From NCBI GenBank assembly GCA_016705245.1, contig JADIYM010000005.1, forward strand, positions 139,069 through 203,068: DNA of 64,000 bases, read 5' to 3'. Origin of the DNA: Blastocatellia bacterium. GTDB lineage: Bacteria > Acidobacteriota > Blastocatellia > UBA7656 > JADIYM01. A program made the translations under genes and the position numbers. A model generated the notes under the pieces. The model was not told where the DNA came from, searched no databases, and was given only the letters and a program-made list of their open reading frames with translations. Positions within the stretch are counted from its first letter, which is position 1; each line of letters starts with the position of its first letter. Positions 10,878-53,882 of the stretch are shown piece after piece.

Positions 10878-13775
10878 TTGTTTCGCACGGCCGCGATCGC
10901 CGTGGGTGCCACGTTGCTCGCGGCCGGGCTCACCGCGCCGAGCGCCGAAGGTTGCGGCTGGACGGGCTACGAACGCTCGCTCAGGTTCCCGATCAGCTCG
11001 GTCAACAAGGACCGGCTGCCTCCGCTTCCCGGTGAGTTGCCCTACCCGGTGAACTCGAATAATGAACTCGAAGACGAGCCGTTCTGGTACTTCGAAGATG
11101 ACTATGGCTGCGGTTGTGGTGGAAACTACGAAGCGGAAGAGCGATTTGAGGCCACGCAGCAGCACCTGCTGGATGCCCGCGTCCTCATTGCGACCGGCGA
11201 CACACGCGGCGCCGGCAAGCTCCTCGAGCGTTTCCTCGACGAAAGCGCGGCCCTGATGCGCGACGGATTCGACAGGTCTTACCCGACGCCGCAGCAGCAG
11301 CAACGAAACCAGGGCGATCGACCTGCTGGACCTCGTTCGCGAGCGCGATCGGGGCGTGGCGCTTCCGGCAATCCAGACTTACGCGCTGGTCCGAATGCGT
11401 GACTTCGCCGTGGACCAGCGCCCGGACAGTTGGCCGGAACTGGCGGAGTTCGCCAGACGCGACGATCGCTTTGCCGACAATGTCGCGTACCTCAATGGTG
11501 CGTTCCTGTATCGAGTGGGGCGATTCGATGAAGCGGCACCGCGTTCGACGGACTCATCGAGTCGTGGCCGAAGTCCGACAAGCGAGACGCCGCGCTTCTC
11601 ATGGCCGGGTTGTCGTGCGCTGATCGGTCCGCACTCGCGACCCAGGAGTCGACCCGACCTTCCCTACCTGAGTTCCCGCGCGGAGCGCTTCAGCCCCGGA
11701 TGCGAAGGGCTGGATCGCCCAAGGTTCGCCGTCAAGGGCCTCCCAACGGGACTTGTCGTGGCACTACAATGCTTCGTCCCGAAGCCGATGACCTGGAGCG
11801 ATTGGAAGGAGTGCGTTCCCTGAACCGCGGTGCGTCGAAAGGCTTCGTTGACGAACGACCACGTCTCGAAGTCGAGCGGCGACTGGAACGCGACCCCTGG
11901 CGGCCACGCTGGCGTATGCGTATTTCGAGGTCTACAACGACGTACCGTCGTACGACGAATGCGACACGGAATCGAAAGCCGGAGGCCTGGCAGGCGCAGA
12001 ACATTTCGAACGCGTCGCCAAATTCGCGTCGAGGATGGCCGATCGGTTTCCGAAGGGCGGCATCGGGGCCGGGTTTGCCCTGCGGGTTGCCGGGGCCTGC
12101 GTCGAGATCGATCGATTCGACGATGCGGCGAAGTTTGCGAAGCGGGCGCTCGATGCGGGCCCTTCCGAGCGCGAACGTCACGAAGCGCTCCTGTTCCTGG
12201 CAAGGGCCGAACACGGCGCCCGCGCGATTCGACAAGGCGCGCGCGGCGATCGGTCGGCTTCTCGCCGCGTCTCCGGATCGACGGATGGAAGAGTCGGCGC
12301 GGCGTCGACTGGCCATGATCTGCGAAGACGGCGATGACCTGGCCGGCGCACTCGACGCCTACCGGTCGCTCGGCTACGAGGCCGACGCCGCGTATTGCAT
12401 CGACGTGCTCATGACGCTCGGCGAGCTTCGGGCGTACATCGACGCACGGCCCGACGACCCGAATGCCGACTGGCTGCGGTACGCACTTGGCGTCAGGCTG
12501 CTTCGCACGGGCAGCTACGATCTGGCCCGGATCGAGTTGATGAGGGTGCGGACGGGGAGCTCTGAGCTCGACCGGTGGACCAGCCACGGCACACCCGAGA
12601 CCGAGCCATTTACGTTTGAATCCGCGGCCAAGGATTCGAAGGCGTTCAATCCCGCTGTCCGACTGCCCCGGCAGCACTGGTTGGCAGCGGATCTGCAGAC
12701 CGCGTCCGATCTTCAGGCGCTGCGACTTCAGGCGATTCGCACCGCGACCGACGAGGTCGCGGCCGAAGCGCAGTATCAGTACGCCGCGTACCTCTTCGAC
12801 CGCGAAGCGCTCCTGTTCTACAACCCGACACTCTGGTGGGGATCGCGAACCGATCTGCTCAATACCCTTGCTTACGCCGACGACTTCCGTCTTCCCGGCG
12901 AAGGCGCGCGGGTCTGGTACGCCACGAACCAGCACGATGCGCTCGCGCAGTCAGTCGACGCGTTTCTGGACGTCGTCGACCGGTATCCGTCCACGGCCGC
13001 AGCGGCCGACGCGCTTTACTCGGCGGCCGTTGCGCACGAGCGGCTCTCGCAATTCAACGGTTATTGGTCAGTGCAATACGCGGCTGGCCGGCACGCCGGG
13101 AGGCGATTGGTCACCTACGACGACGTCCGACGGGCTTATCCGGCGTATCGCTTTCCCAAAGGCACGTTCGGCTGGGAGGCGGCGACGCGGACGGTCAACG
13201 GCGCGCCGGGGTGGGATCCGCTGCCGCAGAAGGCGAAACCGGTTCCGGCGTGGAGGAGGTACGCGACGCGTGGGCCGGAAGTGATCGCCGAGTTTGGCGG
13301 TCCCGTCGTCGCGCGACTCTCGGGCTGGGTGAGCAGCGGGACGAACTGGCTTGTCGAAGTGGTCAGGCGCGCTGCGATCCTCATGCTTCAGGCGATCCTG
13401 CTCGTGGTGATTCTCGGTGCGTGGATTCTCGCCGTCCGGTCGTCGCTACGCCTCGCGCTCGAGACGGCGAACGGGCACGTGCGGGCACGGGCGCTGCTGC
13501 CGGCGTCGTTGGCGTATCGGCCGCGCGACTACAGGTGGCTCGCCTGGGCCGCCGGTCAAATGACGTCACTGCGGGAAGGCGTCGCGGCGCTATCGATCAC
13601 TCGATGCGGGGCCGAGAAGGGCGAGGCTTCCAGCGAGACGAGGCTCGACGATCGGGTCGTAGTCTTCATCGAGCGGGCGAGGCTCTTCGTGTCCACGACG
13701 CCGGAGGGATTTGCTTGCGTCCTCGTGGTCGTGACGCACGTCCCGTTCCTGCTGCTCATGGCGATGGCGAACTAG
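10878..13775 (+). pseudogene. Large hypothetical secreted or membrane protein(s), split over at least 3-4 reading frames by apparent frameshifts. It is either a disrupted gene or a victim of sequence errors.
   Basis: N-terminal signal peptide (MFRTAAIAVGATLLAAGL). Coding-like sequence continues through frames 10878, 11356, ~11880-12220 (manual translation ...AYAYFEVYNDVPSYDECDTE...RFPKGGIGAGFALRVAGA...) and 12220-13775. It ends with a TM helix (ILMLQAILLVVILGAWILAV). The frame junctions are near 11315, 11530-11880 and 12215. Confidence 0.45.
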
Positions 13776-23713: not shown

Positions 23714-24394
23714 TCAGATCTTCCGCACGAGCCCGATGAGCTTTCCGAGGATCTGCAGACGATCGCGCTCGTCTCCTTCGAACCGAAGCGGTCGATATGA
23801 GGAATTGGCCGGTTCGAGGACGACGGCGCCTCGATCTTCGCGATAGCGCTTGATCGTCGCCTCGCCTTCCTCGCCATCGGCGATCATTGCGATGACCGTA
23901 TCGCCGGGCGTCGCCGTCGGCTGTTGCCGGACGATGGCGTAGTCGCCCTCGTGGATACCGTCCTCGATCATCGAGTCGCCGGTGACCTCGAGGGCAAAGA
24001 GGGTTCCCTTTCGATCGAACATCGCACCGAGAGAGAGCTCGCCGATGTGGTTCTCGGCCGCGAGAATCGGGGTACCGGCCGCCACGCGTCCTACGATCGG
24101 AATACCGGCCGGCTCCGTCGAGGCGACTTTTCGGGCCGGCGTCGGTCGCCCGACGACGCGAAGCCCGGACTTTCCGGACGCATCGAGCGCGGCATCCGTG
24201 AGCGCAATATCGCGGTGACGGCCTTCACCGGCGACGTAGCCGGCGCGCCGGAGGGCCTGAAGGTGGTAGTGCACCGTCGAGCGCTTCATGTCGAGCTGCT
24301 CGGCGAGCTCGCGCACGGTCGGGGGCATGCCGGTTCCAGCCGCCTTCGCGATCGCGTTCAGAATCGCACGTTGAGTTGCATTGAGGTCAGCCAT
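23714..24394 (-). CDS. lexA: LexA repressor
   Basis: Start MADLNATQRAIL... (wHTH); the C-terminal S24 peptidase has GDSMIEDGIHEGD...K. The start at 24394 is refined from the longer track ORF. Confidence 0.92.
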   Translation of the reverse strand: MADLNATQRAILNAIAKAAGTGMPPTVRELAEQLDMKRSTVHYHLQALRRAGYVAGEGRHRDIALTDAALDASGKSGLRVVGRPTPARKVASTEPAGIPIVGRVAAGTPILAAENHIGELSLGAMFDRKGTLFALEVTGDSMIEDGIHEGDYAIVRQQPTATPGDTVIAMIADGEEGEATIKRYREDRGAVVLEPANSSYRPLRFEGDERDRLQILGKLIGLVRKI

Positions 24395-24407
24395 GGCTGG
24401 CAGAGTA

Positions 24408-24421
24408 CTGGACAATCGTCC
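24408..24421. promoter_or_regulatory. Putative LexA operator 1 (GGAC-N4-GTCC palindrome) in the lexA 5' region
   Basis: ACTGGACAATCGTCCT lies 15 bp upstream of the lexA start. A second copy, ACTGGACATTTGTCCT, is at 24496-24511. Confidence 0.45.
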
Positions 24422-24495
24422 TGAAATCAACAGGATTGTCGGTCGGAAAAATTCTTCTTGACACGACTTACGGGCGGGGCGCATGATGCGCGGGC

Positions 24496-24511
24496 ACTGG
24501 ACATTTGTCCT
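24496..24511. promoter_or_regulatory. Putative LexA operator 2 upstream of the divergent small ORF
   Basis: 14 of 16 positions match operator 1. It lies between a TTGACA hexamer (24457-24462) and the RBS/start of the ORF at 24550. Confidence 0.45.
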
Positions 24512-24549
24512 ACCTGCTCTGGCGAGCTTATGTAAGGAGTGTAGCGAAA

Positions 24550-24738
24550 ATGAACGAGAATCCTGGCCGTGAAGAAATGGAGAGACTCGAGCGAACCGTG
24601 CAGCGAGTCTTTGCGAGAGTGTCGGTTCTCGAGGCCCGCGTCAACGATCTCGAGCGCGAACTGCTGGCGCGCAACGGTCGCACTCTGCACGAGGTCGAGT
24701 GGCATTCGAGGCTCGAGGGATTGCGTCGGACAGCGTGA
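24550..24738 (+). CDS. Small coiled-coil hypothetical protein (63 aa) divergent from lexA; candidate SOS-regulated gene
   Basis: Strong RBS taAGGAGt 11 nt before the ATG. Sequence MNENPGREEMERLERTVQRVFARVSVLEARVNDLERELLARNG... Confidence 0.5.
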   Translation: MNENPGREEMERLERTVQRVFARVSVLEARVNDLERELLARNGRTLHEVEWHSRLEGLRRTA

Positions 24739-25551
24739 GTCAGACTGTGGAGATCCGGACTGCATGCAGGCGGATTTCCTGGTCGAGACGGGCGAGAGCG
24801 CGGAATGGAATTCCGGGAATGATGGCCGTCCCGGGGGCGTGAGCGAGAATCCGGGTGCGGCTCGGGCGATGTCGATGGTGCCTTTCGTCGTCGATCCGAT
24901 GTGCACCCGGTAATGAGACGGGTTACGGAAAGAGAGGGATTCTTCCATTCGGCAGCGGCGATTCGGCGATGCGGCCGACGGGAATCCTGGGCTTGCAGGT
25001 GGCCAACGGGGAGGCCACTGAAGCTGGAGTCGAACCGGCGCTGAGGTGCAGGGCGCCTGCAGCCGGCAGCGGTGTAGTTTCTTCCGGCAGAACCTTGCGT
25101 GATGGCATTGGCCCTGCTCCACAGGCCGTCGCCGACCCTAACGATCACGCAGGGCTGCCACCCGCCGGCGCGGCAGCATGGGCTGTCGCGCCGCCTGCCA
25201 TGGTGACGCGCCGTTATCACCCGATAGCTCGTTTTCACGGTCCGTCCGGCCAGGCCCCGTGGCGCCTTGCCGTCAGCAAGGGGCCACGATTGGCCCAGAA
25301 CCCCGAGCGCAGCGAGGGGCCGACTGCGATAACCACAGACCGCCGATGAACAGTTGGGGAAATCAACAGCCCAGGACAATTCCACAAACAACTCGGATCC
25401 CCCGGTCGGCCCCTCGCTTCGCTCTGAGCGTGTCCCACAGTTTGTGCTGGACACGGACAGAAGTGCAGCGCCGGTCACGACCGAGCGCTCGAGTTGGTGG
25501 AGGGGGACGCAACCGGATCGGGCGTGCGGTACAACCACTTGGCGGTAGATG

Positions 25552-25662
25552 TAAGGCCGGCCGCTCACTGCGTTCGCGGTTCTGGGACGTGCGGTCCGGA
25601 GAGCGGTCCCCGTCGGCCGCAGGCCGACCCAGAACCGCGAACGCAGTGAGCGGCCGGCCTTA
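25552..25662. repeat. Long near-perfect hairpin (35-bp arms, ~40-nt loop); family C (CCCAGAACC core)
   Basis: taaggccggccgctcactgcgttcgcggttctggg ... cccagaaccgcgaacgcagtgagcggccggcctta. Partial related copies are at 25295-25322 and 43485-43510. Confidence 0.85.
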
Positions 25663-26306
25663 CCGAGCGCACAACTGGTCCGCACTCCGGGGTACCGCGC
25701 CAACTCCGGCTGGTTCCAAGCCCGATAAAGATATTTGACACCTCATGCCGGATTTCTGCGTCCTTAAGGTGTATGCGTGACGTAGGTCGCCGGCTGAATA
25801 CGGACCGACCCCCTCAGCCGACAGCCGGCGCCTACATCCGCACGACTCCTGGGCTGCGGAGATGACGTCGATGTCCACGCCTGACGGCCCGATTTCTCCG
25901 TCTCGCTGCTTCGATCACCTCGATCGGCCCGCACTTCACTGGAGTCTCGGCTCGGCACCCGTCAACCTCACACTTCTCCACTCCATCCTGAGCCCGAACC
26001 TCACCCAGGAAGAAGAAGCGCTACTCCGGCGACTCTTCCTGGTGCGTATCCTCGAGCAGCGCGCCTCGGACTCCACACCAACAACGAGCGCCTGAACCAC
26101 CACGTTCAGTAGCACTTGCAGTTCTTGCCCGTCGTCGCGATGCTCTTAATGCGCGCCTCGGGCGAACTGATCGGTAGCGCAGGACATCGTATGACCGCTT
26201 GGTGTCGCGCAAGACCGCGCGTTGAGCGACGGCGAATCGTCGGGTCCAGCGTTTCGCGAATTTTCAATTAGCCGCGCCGGCGAAGACCGGCCGGGAGGTT
26301 CCAGCG

Positions 26307-27712
26307 ATGTCGAACGTTTCTCGATTCACCTTCACGGCGGCTGTTCTTGCCGTCGTTCTTGCGCTCCTCGCCCTTCCGGCCCTTTCGCCCGTGAGCGCGG
26401 CGCAAAAGGCCGGCCCGAAGAAGACGCCGGCGCTAACAATGAAACTGCGCGAACGGATCGCGGCATCAGGCAAGACCGCCCGCGTCGCCACCAAGGTGCC
26501 CGTTCGTGTTCGGGACGCCGCGGCGAAGGTCTCCTCTGAACAGCGCGCCACCTCTTTCGGCGCCCGCGCTGCGGGAACTGCGGCAAAAAGCGCCGCTCCG
26601 GCCGCGCGTCGAAGGGCGCACCATGGATCGCCGACTCTCCTCGTCGCGCATCGCTTCCGGCTGAAAAAGGCACATCCTTTGTTGGCAGGAACGGGACCGG
26701 GCTTGGAGATATCTTCGAAGACGAGCCGAACGACTCGGTCGCGCACATTCTCGATGACGTGCCCGTCAATGTCGTCGGCGAGGTGAGCTTCGAAGAAGAC
26801 ATCGACTTCTTTGCCTTTACGGCCGAGGGCGGGGAACAGGTGCGTATTGAGATCATTGCCGACCGAATCTTCGGCTCCAGCCTTGATTCCCTGATCTACG
26901 TCATCGACGAAGACGGCGAGACGACCCTGGCGACGAACGACGATTTCTTTGACGAGAGCCGCGACTCGTTTATCCGCTTCGTTGCTCCCGTGTCGGGAAA
27001 CCGCGTCTACTTCATCGCAGTGACCGACTTCGGCGGGCTCGGCGGATCGACGTTTCCGTACGTCCTGAACCTGGCCATTGCCGACGCTCCCGATCGGGTC
27101 GAGGTCGAGCCGAACGACACGACTCCCAACGCCGATGAGGCACCGATTCCGTCGTTCTTTTTTGGCGATTCTGACATCAATGACGATCTCGACATCTACT
27201 TCTTCGAAGGCTTTGCCGGCGAGGCCTTCATCGTCGACATCGATGCCGAGCTCTTCTTCTCCGCCATGGACCCGGTCGTCGAGCTTTATGACGACACGGG
27301 CGGCTACCTGTTCGGAGTGGACGACGCGGACGGGCTCGACCCGCGTTTCAACATCGTGCTGCCTTACACGGGCCTGTACTTCCTGGCCGTCTACGATGCG
27401 ACAGGTCTCGGAAGCTCATCGAGCTACTACTCGATGAACGTCTCGGTGCAGAGCGGCGCCCTTGCGCCTCGCATCGACTTCTTCAAGTTCGTTAACTTCA
27501 CGGTTCTCAAGCAGGTGCGCGGAATCGGGTTCGTGAATGCAGGCGATGGCGCCTACGCGGAACTCAACTCCGTCGAGATCCGGAGCTTCAACGCGCCTAG
27601 AAAGCCGACCACCGCCATCAAGGTGAAGCCGGGTGTCGAGACAGAAGATGGCGACGTCGTGACGGTGGTCAATCCGGACGGCCGGAGGTCGAACCCCGGC
27701 ATCATCGACTGA
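26307..27712 (+). CDS. Secreted protein with tandem pre-peptidase C-terminal (PPC) domains; apparent frameshift near 26650
   Basis: Signal peptide MSNVSRFTFTAAVLAVVLALLALPALS. After the frame switch come the PPC motifs EDEPNDSVAHILDDVPVNVVGEVSFEEDIDFFAF... and EVEPNDTTPNADEAPIPSFFFGDSDINDDLDIYFFEG. Confidence 0.7.
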
Positions 27713-51959: not shown

Positions 51960-52700
51960 GGAGTGACTCCGCCGCGCCCTCTCGGTGGCCGCCGTGTCCG
52001 GCGTTCGGGAAGAACCGGATTGTCACGTCCGGATTGCCGCCTTTTGCGAAGGCCGCGGCGAGCGCAGCCTGCGTCTCAGGCACGGGAATGTGACGGTCCT
52101 TGCCCCCCAGCAGATAGAGCACGGGTACCTTGATTCGCTCGACTACCGATGCGGGCTCATACGCGCAATGAACCCGATAGAAGAACCGCTGATCTTCGGT
52201 GAGCTCGGACGCCATCGGTGGCGCATCGGGCCACTTCATTCGGGCGAACCACGGCCGCGACCGGCCCCCAACGCCGAGCCCAGTGCGCGCGCGTGTTCCA
52301 GGGACGCGGAACCCACCTCGCGCGGCGCCCCCCTGCTCAGAGCTACCCCCGGGGGACATTCTGCTCAGTGGCGAAACCCGGGACCGATACGATCTTCACG
52401 TCAGGGCACCAGTTCCACCTGGCGATGCCCCAGACGCCAACCCTCGATGCGTCCACGTGGCCGCATGAATGCAATGGCTGCCCTGGCGTCCAGCTGCGCT
52501 CGAAGGTCCGGAGCCTCGGTAGGCGCCTTCCGACTCGCCGGTGCCGCGTTTGGGCGGACCGCAAATCCGTGGCGGCAACGGGTCGCCTGCGGCCCGTACA
52601 CTCGTCCTCGGCGGCGCCGGTGGCGGCTCGCGAGGTGCGCGCGCTCGCGCGGGCTCGGCTGCGTGGCGGGGCGCCGCGGTGCCGGTGCAGGCCTGGCTGC
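51960..52700 (-). pseudogene. Alpha/beta-hydrolase (S9 / dienelactone hydrolase-like) remnant, frameshifted and truncated at the homopolymer tract
   Basis: The C-terminal portion is readable (KVPVLYLLGGKDRHIPVPETQAALAAAFAKGGNPDVTIRFFPNAGHGG). The upstream part is split over other frames (…VDASRVGVWGIARW…). Confidence 0.45.
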
Positions 52701-52736
52701 ACGAACGTGCTCTGGTTTTACCCCGCCGGCACGTCA

Positions 52737-53882
52737 GTGATAAAAACCGGCACCATCGTGGGTGAACCGCTCAAGAATCACTTCGGCGCCGGGATCCCGG
52801 CGCGCATCGCCGAGATGATCTCCGGCGTCTTTCCCGAATTCGATCGGGAGGCTTTTGTCGGCGCCTGCCTCGACGGATATCACGAGCTCGAGCTCGTGCC
52901 GCGCGGGCGAAAAATCTCGACAACACTTCGCGATTACCTGCCGGCCGAATATCCAGCGGCGATCGAAATCCTGATCGCGTCGATCGGTCCAAGGCTCGAG
53001 ACGACCGAAGGCCACGGGATGGCGCCGTTCCTCTACCTTCCGCACGTCTGCTACGTCGCGGAGTTCGGGCTCGAGCATTTCGAGGAGTCGATGCGAGCCC
53101 AGTACGAGCTGACGCAGCGGTTCTCGGCCGAGTTCAGCATCCGGCCGTTCCTCGAGCGCCACACCGAGTCGACGCTGGCTCGCCTCGAGGACTGGACGAA
53201 CGATTCGAGTCCGCACGTCCGCCGCCTCGTTTCGGAGGGAACACGGCCGCGGCTGCCGTGGGCTCCGCGATTGAGGGAGTTCCAGAAAGACCCACGGCCC
53301 GTGCTGGCGCTGCTCGAGCTGCTTAAGGACGATCCAGACCTCTACGTGAGGCGTTCGGTGGCGAACAACCTCAACGACATCGGCAAGGACCACCCGACGC
53401 TGCTCGTCGAGACAGCGCGAAAGTGGCTGGGCGAGGCTTCGGACGAACGACGCTGGCTCGTCCATCACGCGCTCAGATCGGCAGTGAAACGCGCCGAGCC
53501 CGGGGCCCTTGAAGTGATGGGTTTCGGCGTGGCGCCGCGGGTTTCGCTCGACAATACACGCATCACTCCGGAACGGGCCCTTATGGGCGGCCGCGTGGAG
53601 ATTGCCTTTGACGTCACGAACACGGGCTCACGGCGACAGCGCATCCTGGTGGACTTTCGCATTCACTTCGTGAAGGCAAATGGAAAAGCCACTCCGAAGG
53701 TATTCAAGCTGAAAGCGCTCGAACTTTGTCCTCGCGAGAGCGTGTCGATCGCCAAGTCCGTTTCTCTCGCGGAAATGACCACGCGGAAGCACTATCCGGG
53801 AACACACGCGGTCGACGTCGTCTTGAACGGCGTCGTCGTGACGCTCGGGACGTTCGAGTTGGTGCGCGATACCACGTCCTGA
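52737..53882 (+). CDS. DNA alkylation repair protein (AlkC/AlkD-like HEAT-repeat family)
   Basis: Probable GTG start (VIKTGTIVGEPLKNHFGAGIPARIAEMI...); HEAT-like repeats (…HVRRLVSEGTRPRLPWA…VRRSVANNLNDIGKDHP…). The track ORF from 52218 has an artefactual N-extension. Confidence 0.6.
   Translation: MIKTGTIVGEPLKNHFGAGIPARIAEMISGVFPEFDREAFVGACLDGYHELELVPRGRKISTTLRDYLPAEYPAAIEILIASIGPRLETTEGHGMAPFLYLPHVCYVAEFGLEHFEESMRAQYELTQRFSAEFSIRPFLERHTESTLARLEDWTNDSSPHVRRLVSEGTRPRLPWAPRLREFQKDPRPVLALLELLKDDPDLYVRRSVANNLNDIGKDHPTLLVETARKWLGEASDERRWLVHHALRSAVKRAEPGALEVMGFGVAPRVSLDNTRITPERALMGGRVEIAFDVTNTGSRRQRILVDFRIHFVKANGKATPKVFKLKALELCPRESVSIAKSVSLAEMTTRKHYPGTHAVDVVLNGVVVTLGTFELVRDTTS

Follow-up and report, generated by a model that had tools for sequence, protein, structure and literature searches.

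Within the 64,000-nucleotide stretch of the Blastocatellia bacterium contig JADIYM010000005.1 analysed here (hereafter, the window), lexA, the gene of the SOS repressor, stands back to back with a small gene encoding a soluble leucine-zipper protein, and the 155-bp spacer between them holds two near-identical palindromes of the form GGAC-N4-GTCC. We consider it probable that the locus is a back-to-back pair of SOS-controlled promoters under a variant LexA operator, with the small protein serving in a DNA damage checkpoint. The regulatory part of this reading, in which GGAC-N4-GTCC is the LexA operator at both promoters, is advanced with high confidence from sequence comparison; the checkpoint role is argued by analogy and is held far more tentatively. 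An earlier reading of the same DNA, made from its letters alone (the original prediction), had named the palindromes a candidate SOS box. This claim is strongly supported: both palindromes keep their promoter-relative position across a clade of related loci, and lexA genes of other phyla lack them upstream.

The palindromes are embedded in 16-mers that both fit ACTGGACAWTYGTCCT, namely ACTGGACAATCGTCCT (box 1, in the lexA promoter) and ACTGGACATTTGTCCT (box 2, in front of the small gene), and that are identical at 14 of 16 positions (Table 1). This identity had been predicted, as had the length of the spacer, which the coordinates confirm, but the position first given for box 1 (24406-24421, instead of 24407-24422) was one base off. 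No other sequence in the window matches ACTGGACAWTYGTCCT with fewer than three mismatches. The bare palindrome is not enriched there (four copies observed versus 2.2 expected), and the two copies outside the spacer, which are centred on G+C-rich sequence, are unrelated; the Poisson probability of two copies within one 155-bp spacer is ~1.4e-5. An RNA hairpin was also considered as an explanation of the boxes and ruled out, the stem being only 4 bp long and box 1 lying upstream of the inferred lexA transcription start. No RNA family was found in the spacer or in the gap after the small gene.

Relatives of the locus carry most of the evidence for an operator. The LexA proteins closest to that of the window form a clade whose members range from 98% to 53% identity, followed by a gap, all other LexAs being at most 46% identical. 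Twelve clade loci with DNA, from uncultured Blastocatellia, were compared (L001, L002, L081-L088, L169, and L170). Upstream of lexA, each of them has two GGAC-N4-GTCC palindromes and no more, separated by 86-91 bp, and all 24 sites match GGAC-[A/G][A/T][A/T][C/T]-GTCC, the consensus being the perfect palindrome GGACAATTGTCC (GGAC-RWWY-GTCC). When the spacers of eight non-redundant, divergent clade loci are aligned, the boxes are invariant in 21 of 24 columns (11 of 12 in box 1 and 10 of 12 in box 2) versus 18 of 137 columns in the rest of the spacer (Fisher p = 8e-13); outside the boxes, invariance is concentrated in TTGACA and in parts of the lexA -35 and -10 elements.

The motif is confined to these promoters. 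An A+T-centred box occurs nowhere else in 176 kb of clade DNA, and the two-box arrangement is found upstream of lexA in none of ~155 lexA loci from other phyla: the apparent match in one locus outside the clade (L061) falls within coding sequence, and another (L100) has a single site with a G+C-rich centre. Conversely, no GAAC-N4-GTTC was found upstream of clade lexA genes. A scan of genome contigs with LexA returned at least two clade members among the matches listed; the corresponding scan of metagenome contigs returned none among the matches listed, each of which is at most 44% identical. None of the canonical SOS genes (recA, uvrA, dinB, and imuAB) lies within the window or within ~110 kb of related loci.

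Both boxes occupy fixed positions relative to divergent promoters. In all ten loci tabulated for the lexA promoter (the window plus L002, L081, L082, L084-L087, L169, and L170), the order is TTGnnn, a spacer of 17-19 nt that contains box 1, TAnnnT, 5-8 nt, and ATG or GTG; a promoter scanner scores the L169 promoter at 10 of 12 matches. The predicted placement of one box just upstream of the lexA start, as fits autoregulation, is therefore borne out by sequence evidence, box 1 lying within the -35/-10 spacer in ten of ten loci. None of these loci has a Shine-Dalgarno sequence before lexA and, because the -10 element ends 5-8 nt before the start codon, the lexA mRNA is probably leaderless. On the opposite strand, the small gene of the window is preceded by TTGACA with a -10 element 18 nt away, and in relatives by TTGACA, 17 nt, and TATAAC; an A+T-rich tract adjoins the -35 element in ten of ten loci. 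Box 2 starts 12-13 nt past this -10 element in all ten, covering roughly +5 to +17. As had been claimed, it sits between TTGACA (24458-24463) and the strong ribosome-binding site AAGGAG, and relatives have GGAG or GGAGG 6-11 nt before the ATG. The whole looks like a strong promoter that is kept in check by an operator placed over the start of transcription.

We propose the following working of the locus. A LexA dimer would bind each palindrome. At box 1, it would fill the lexA -35/-10 spacer and exclude RNA polymerase, amounting to the autoregulation that is near-universal for lexA; at box 2, it would block open-complex formation or promoter escape at the small-gene promoter. LexA self-cleavage is triggered by RecA filaments after DNA damage, and such damage would thus open both promoters, with the small protein made in quantity. 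Indeed, because a dedicated copy of the lexA-promoter operator precedes a conserved gene, induction of the small gene by DNA damage is very probable. In the last step, which is the most tentative, the small protein would be a checkpoint effector that delays division via a cytoplasmic target.

The repressor itself is, to judge from its sequence, canonical in this Blastocatellia lineage, joining a winged helix-turn-helix to an S24 self-cleaving domain. The window protein scores 153.3 bits against TIGR00498 (cut-off 110.95), 42.9 bits against the Pfam domain LexA_DNA_bind (PF01726), and 97.1 bits against Peptidase_S24 (PF00717). Its VAAG cleavage site, GDSM serine, and IKR lysine align with A84-G85, S119, and K156 of Escherichia coli LexA, and the cleavage site and the Ser/Lys dyad are invariant across the clade alignment. 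A longer lexA ORF (open reading frame) of 256 aa, extended to a start at 24484, was ruled out, the LexA profile and all orthologues beginning at the ATG at 24394.

The variant operator can be placed among known ones. The Gram-positive LexA box (Cheo box, CGAAC-RNRY-GTTYG, of Bacillus DinR/LexA, Actinobacteria, and Chloroflexi) likewise consists of two 4-nt inverted arms around a 4-nt purine...pyrimidine centre and likewise lies within or just after the core promoter, with lexA autoregulated. Its arms, however, are GAAC/GTTC, whereas those in 24 of 24 clade sites are GGAC/GTCC, one base having changed per arm. The original prediction had set the motif apart from the classical GAAC-N4-GTTC; this holds for the arms, but the motif is less foreign than was implied, the layout being the same. 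The LexA alignment shows a parallel difference, in that the recognition helix reads STVHYHL in the clade versus STVH(G/A/S)HL in the LexAs of Armatimonadota and Actinomycetota, and the turn before it MKR-S versus xSSS in Gram-positive-type LexAs. The recognition helix of Bacillus subtilis LexA is of the STVH(G/A/S)HL type as well. Because the change from Gly/Ala/Ser to Tyr coincides with and fits a one-base-per-arm derivative of GAAC-N4-GTTC, we infer that this Tyr is a candidate specificity determinant.

A paper from 2021 counts 17 distinct LexA motifs (PMC8565304). No report of GGAC-N4-GTCC as a LexA motif was found in the searchable literature. To our knowledge, the only acidobacterial LexA site on record is GTTC-N7-GTTC, that of Acidobacterium capsulatum. 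In 2006, Mazon et al. (a study cited in PMC3789691) reportedly described it as a direct repeat like that of Alphaproteobacteria and attributed it to lateral transfer of lexA. The same phylum, Acidobacteriota, would then hold a direct repeat in that bacterium and, in contrast, a palindrome of Gram-positive layout in the Blastocatellia clade. As a separate observation, four Hydrogenedentota lexA loci (L061, L070, L073, and L080) have a CTGAA-N6-TTCAG palindrome ~20-50 nt upstream of lexA, just after a TTGACA/-10-like promoter; this is a probable LexA operator of Hydrogenedentota, and it resembles the myxobacterial motif.

Geometry and helix also bear on whether the palindromes serve another regulator, be it a transcription factor encoded elsewhere or the small protein, which would then control its own promoter. 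We rate this as very unlikely. The 12-bp palindrome, with its 4-nt arms and 4-nt centre, has exactly the geometry of a Gram-positive-type LexA site, the LexA encoded beside it has a Gram-positive-type recognition helix with one substitution, and the motif tracks the LexA clade perfectly, with one box in lexA's own promoter. Although the small protein is arginine-rich at conserved surface positions, it has no recognizable DNA-binding domain, and the sequence-based nature of the link between LexA and the site is the other circumstance that would leave room for a different regulator.

That the small ORF is a real gene under purifying selection is clear from its sequence, because of its codon-position pattern (12, 6, and 30 variable columns at the first, second, and third positions of a 32-codon core aligned from homologous loci), its conserved Shine-Dalgarno sequence, and 63 homologous protein clusters with an invariant core. 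It has 62 codons, starting with the ATG at 24550, rather than the 63 first counted. The homologues come from Blastocatellia or Acidobacteria wherever a source is named, and the window protein has the same sequence as a hypothetical protein encoded on a 4.06-Mb contig of a Blastocatellia metagenome-assembled genome. The same codon pattern and clusters speak against the idea that the 16-mers are a chance pair or a recent duplicate without a regulatory role and the ORF spurious. Its proponents could point to the lack of enrichment of the bare palindrome in the window and to the many spurious ORFs that a genome of 64% G+C yields; the boxes, however, are kept in position and sequence even among loci with LexAs of only 53-67% identity, in contrast to the divergent DNA that separates them. 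We give this idea practically no weight and count it as refuted.

The small gene is tied to this lexA, being divergent from it in every locus with known context. At L085, no gene had been called opposite lexA, yet the small ORF is present, and both there and at L082, the linkage persists despite different other neighbours. Apart from members of the family, an exhaustive hidden Markov model search of 1.84 billion representatives returned only long coiled-coil proteins with multiple hits and two proteins that may be distant relatives (P0188 and P0189). Of these two, P0188 (149 aa; L173, 2906-3355) has the N-terminal motif DRLERTxHRVFARVSVLE in common with the small protein (E = 1e-10) and is encoded in a co-directional array of unknown genes together with Prok-E2_D, Prok-JAB, and ThiF genes, with no informative neighbours. 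The array suggests a mobile element, and the helix that P0188 shares with the small protein may be a portable module.

One sub-branch has further genes downstream of the small gene and in its orientation, first one of the glyoxalase/bleomycin-resistance family and then one of the DinB_2 family (PF05163/PF12867) or a DUF1579 gene (L086 180-1481, L169 5085-5950, and two JGI contigs). The glyoxalase/bleomycin-resistance and DinB_2 families are both of classes linked to DNA damage, and this order of genes fits a damage-response unit. In the window, no decayed glyoxalase or DinB_2 genes were found in the 2-kb gap after the small ORF.

The predicted protein is a cytoplasmic, highly charged leucine zipper of four heptads, and probably a dimer. 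AlphaFold2 models one helix over residues 5-42 (pLDDT > 90) and a weakly predicted C-terminal helix. Hydrophobic residues fill the heptad a positions (M10, V17, V24, V31, and L38) and d positions (L13, V20, L27, and L34); the grand average of hydropathy (GRAVY) is -0.93, and the best 19-residue Kyte-Doolittle window reaches 0.32, with no transmembrane segment. In the family alignment, the core EMERLERTVQRVFARVSVLEARVNELEREL is nearly invariant, the surface positions R12, R15, T16, R19, F21, R23, S25, E28, R30, and E35 are invariant too, and so are the last two residues, T61 and A62. This near-complete invariance, which extends beyond the hydrophobic core to all faces of the helix and includes the C-terminal Thr-Ala, implies that the protein binds a conserved partner and possibly that it carries a proteolytic tag.

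What such a protein might do is suggested by its genomic position. YneA, ChiZ, DivS, and SosA are lexA-divergent SOS division inhibitors of Firmicutes and Actinobacteria that have one membrane-spanning segment, an extracellular C-terminus, and in most cases a LysM domain; the extreme C-terminus governs proteolytic turnover in YneA and SosA (PMC6851548). The gene described here resembles those of YneA (Bacillus and Listeria), ChiZ (Mycobacterium), DivS (Corynebacterium), and SosA (Staphylococcus) in being small, lineage-restricted, and divergent from lexA, with an operator in its promoter and a conserved extreme C-terminus in its product. Unlike these membrane-anchored proteins, however, its product is soluble and purely helical, a coiled coil without sequence similarity to them. 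The analogy to yneA, chiZ, and divS drawn in the original prediction thus stands for gene position but fails for transmembrane segment, LysM domain, and sequence. Likewise, an SOS-induced small protein is upheld as far as sequence allows, the gene being real and conserved and having its own operator, but its role in cell division is a guess from analogy.

A cytoplasmic effector has its own precedent. SulA of E. coli is a cytoplasmic inhibitor of FtsZ, repressed by LexA and degraded by Lon, with an alpha/beta fold of ~169 aa and a gene that is not adjacent to lexA. The likeness would lie in a cytoplasmic, LexA-repressed effector, as predicted here, with a possible C-terminal degradation signal; the 62-aa coiled coil differs in size, fold, and gene position and matches neither the SulA Pfam family nor any solved structure. 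Our best guess for a checkpoint role is a SulA-like solution in the genomic position of YneA and SosA. We favour a cytoplasmic checkpoint or division-delay effector, by analogy, while putting it at somewhat less than an even chance.

Several points weigh against the combined reading. The assignment of the site to LexA draws on adjacency, palindrome geometry, and the near-universal autoregulation of lexA. A checkpoint role gains no backing from known families: Pfam and NCBIfam (including SulA, PF03846, and DinI, PF06183) give a single match at E <= 0.01, a sub-threshold one to the generic coiled-coil CT392 family (E = 0.0069; 15.3 bits versus a cut-off of 160), and PHROGs and PADLOC give none. 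A profile search of the Protein Data Bank (PDB) returned only generic coiled coils (E >= 0.009), and Foldseek returned no matches in the PDB. The transmembrane segment and the LysM domain common to YneA, ChiZ, DivS, and SosA are both missing from the small protein. In the sub-branch with additional genes, co-transcription is uncertain at L169, where the DNA separating the small gene from the glyoxalase gene contains GC-rich hairpins.

Under the same regulation, the small protein might instead modulate the SOS switch itself by binding LexA or RecA and tuning repression, cleavage, or filament activity. Proteins of this kind are known: DinI and RecX act on RecA, gp7 of phage GIL01 acts on LexA, and DdrR of Acinetobacter acts on UmuDAb, an S24-family repressor from whose gene that of DdrR, itself small and lineage-restricted, is divergent and with which it is co-regulated. 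DdrR, DinI, and gp7 resemble the protein described here in being small and soluble, and DdrR also in its lineage restriction and its position. A modulator would explain why the small protein is found beside this one LexA clade, with its derived helix and operator, in every locus with context, and why the linkage to lexA outlasts the rearrangement of all other neighbours; a small, soluble protein conserved on all helix faces is, moreover, what one expects of a protein-protein adaptor. Yet, two distant candidates come from the full-sensitivity search, one of them located elsewhere, and the protein resembles neither DinI nor RecX nor any known modulator in sequence or fold. No similarity to DdrR, DinI, or gp7 was detected, no DdrR model being known in the libraries searched. 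Adjacency to lexA is, in addition, equally typical of division inhibitors (PMC6851548). We consider modulation of the switch unlikely, and retain a damage checkpoint as the preferred function, leaving the rest of the probability to functions of other kinds.

A broader possibility, which we regard as rather doubtful, is that the family founds a class of its own among cytoplasmic SOS effectors, having evolved together with a LexA of altered specificity. Its members would be coiled-coil division or replication checkpoint proteins without kinship to SulA or to the membrane-anchored Gram-positive inhibitors, or dedicated partners of LexA or RecA that time the response; the invariant C-terminal Arg-Thr-Ala would serve as a proteolytic off-switch, and one helix substitution (Gly/Ala/Ser to Tyr) would have re-tuned LexA by one base per half-site, which makes GGAC-N4-GTCC an experimentally tractable case. 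Whatever its function, the small protein is a genuine new orphan, probably SOS-induced, and because it is soluble, its target is likely to be new.

The SOS response of Acidobacteriota is almost unknown, and the operator of this Blastocatellia lineage, which is uncultured and abundant in soil and activated sludge, has the Gram-positive layout with a one-base shift per arm. Paired with a single candidate specificity residue, this shift provides a compact natural experiment on the drift of LexA motifs, and the motif can be used directly as a position-weight model to predict SOS regulons, both in these genomes and in metagenomes. If the small gene is a damage effector, it extends the rule that a lexA-divergent gene encodes a lineage-specific effector of this kind beyond Firmicutes and Actinobacteria.

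Table 1. Features of the lexA/small-gene locus, in window coordinates
Feature	Position	Strand	Description
lexA	23714-24394	minus	226 aa; canonical self-cleaving repressor
lexA putative -10, TACTCT	24402-24407	minus	ends 7 nt before ATG
Box 1	24410-24421 (16-mer 24407-24422)	unstranded	12-mer GGACAATCGTCC; putative LexA operator in the lexA promoter spacer
lexA putative -35, TTGATT	24425-24430	minus	17 nt from -10; TTG conserved in all loci
A+T-rich tract, aaaaattcttc	24447-24457	plus	adjoins small-gene -35; UP element-like (putative role); present in 10/10 loci
Small-gene promoter, TTGACA-18 nt-CATGAT	24458-24487	plus	promoter scan 10/12; TTGACA invariant in 8 loci
Box 2	24499-24510 (16-mer 24496-24511)	unstranded	12-mer GGACATTTGTCC; putative LexA operator over the small-gene transcript start
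Small-gene Shine-Dalgarno, AAGGAG	24534-24539	plus	read from sequence
Small gene	24550-24738	plus	62 aa; soluble leucine-zipper protein

Other features of the window were noted in passing. Two long plus-strand ORFs (11601-13775, 724 aa, and 52218-53882, 554 aa) match no Pfam family at E <= 1e-5; L169 also has a gene without Pfam matches, of 723 aa, near lexA. Downstream of the small gene, a stretch of ~2 kb without a credible ORF (24739-26758) contains an inverted repeat of REP- or MITE-like appearance (25551-25589 and 25625-25663), with 39-nt arms that are 97% complementary and 35 nt apart, and a related copy at 25294-25322. At 25735-25842, there is a non-coding block of ~90 nt that is 81-89% conserved across clade loci whose LexAs are ~65% identical. 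A conserved TTGACA precedes it, and it contains a hairpin in which the loop, ACC(A)GACCCCCTCAG, is invariant and two pairs are compensatory; Rfam holds no match for this block, a candidate for a small RNA or a leader in the interval from the small gene to a gene encoding a PPC-domain protein. The latter gene appears split in the window into ORFs of 159 aa (26307-26786) and 317 aa (26759-27712), relatives having one gene of 451-480 aa; the split amounts to a frameshift, to be explained by a pseudogene or by a mistake in the assembly.

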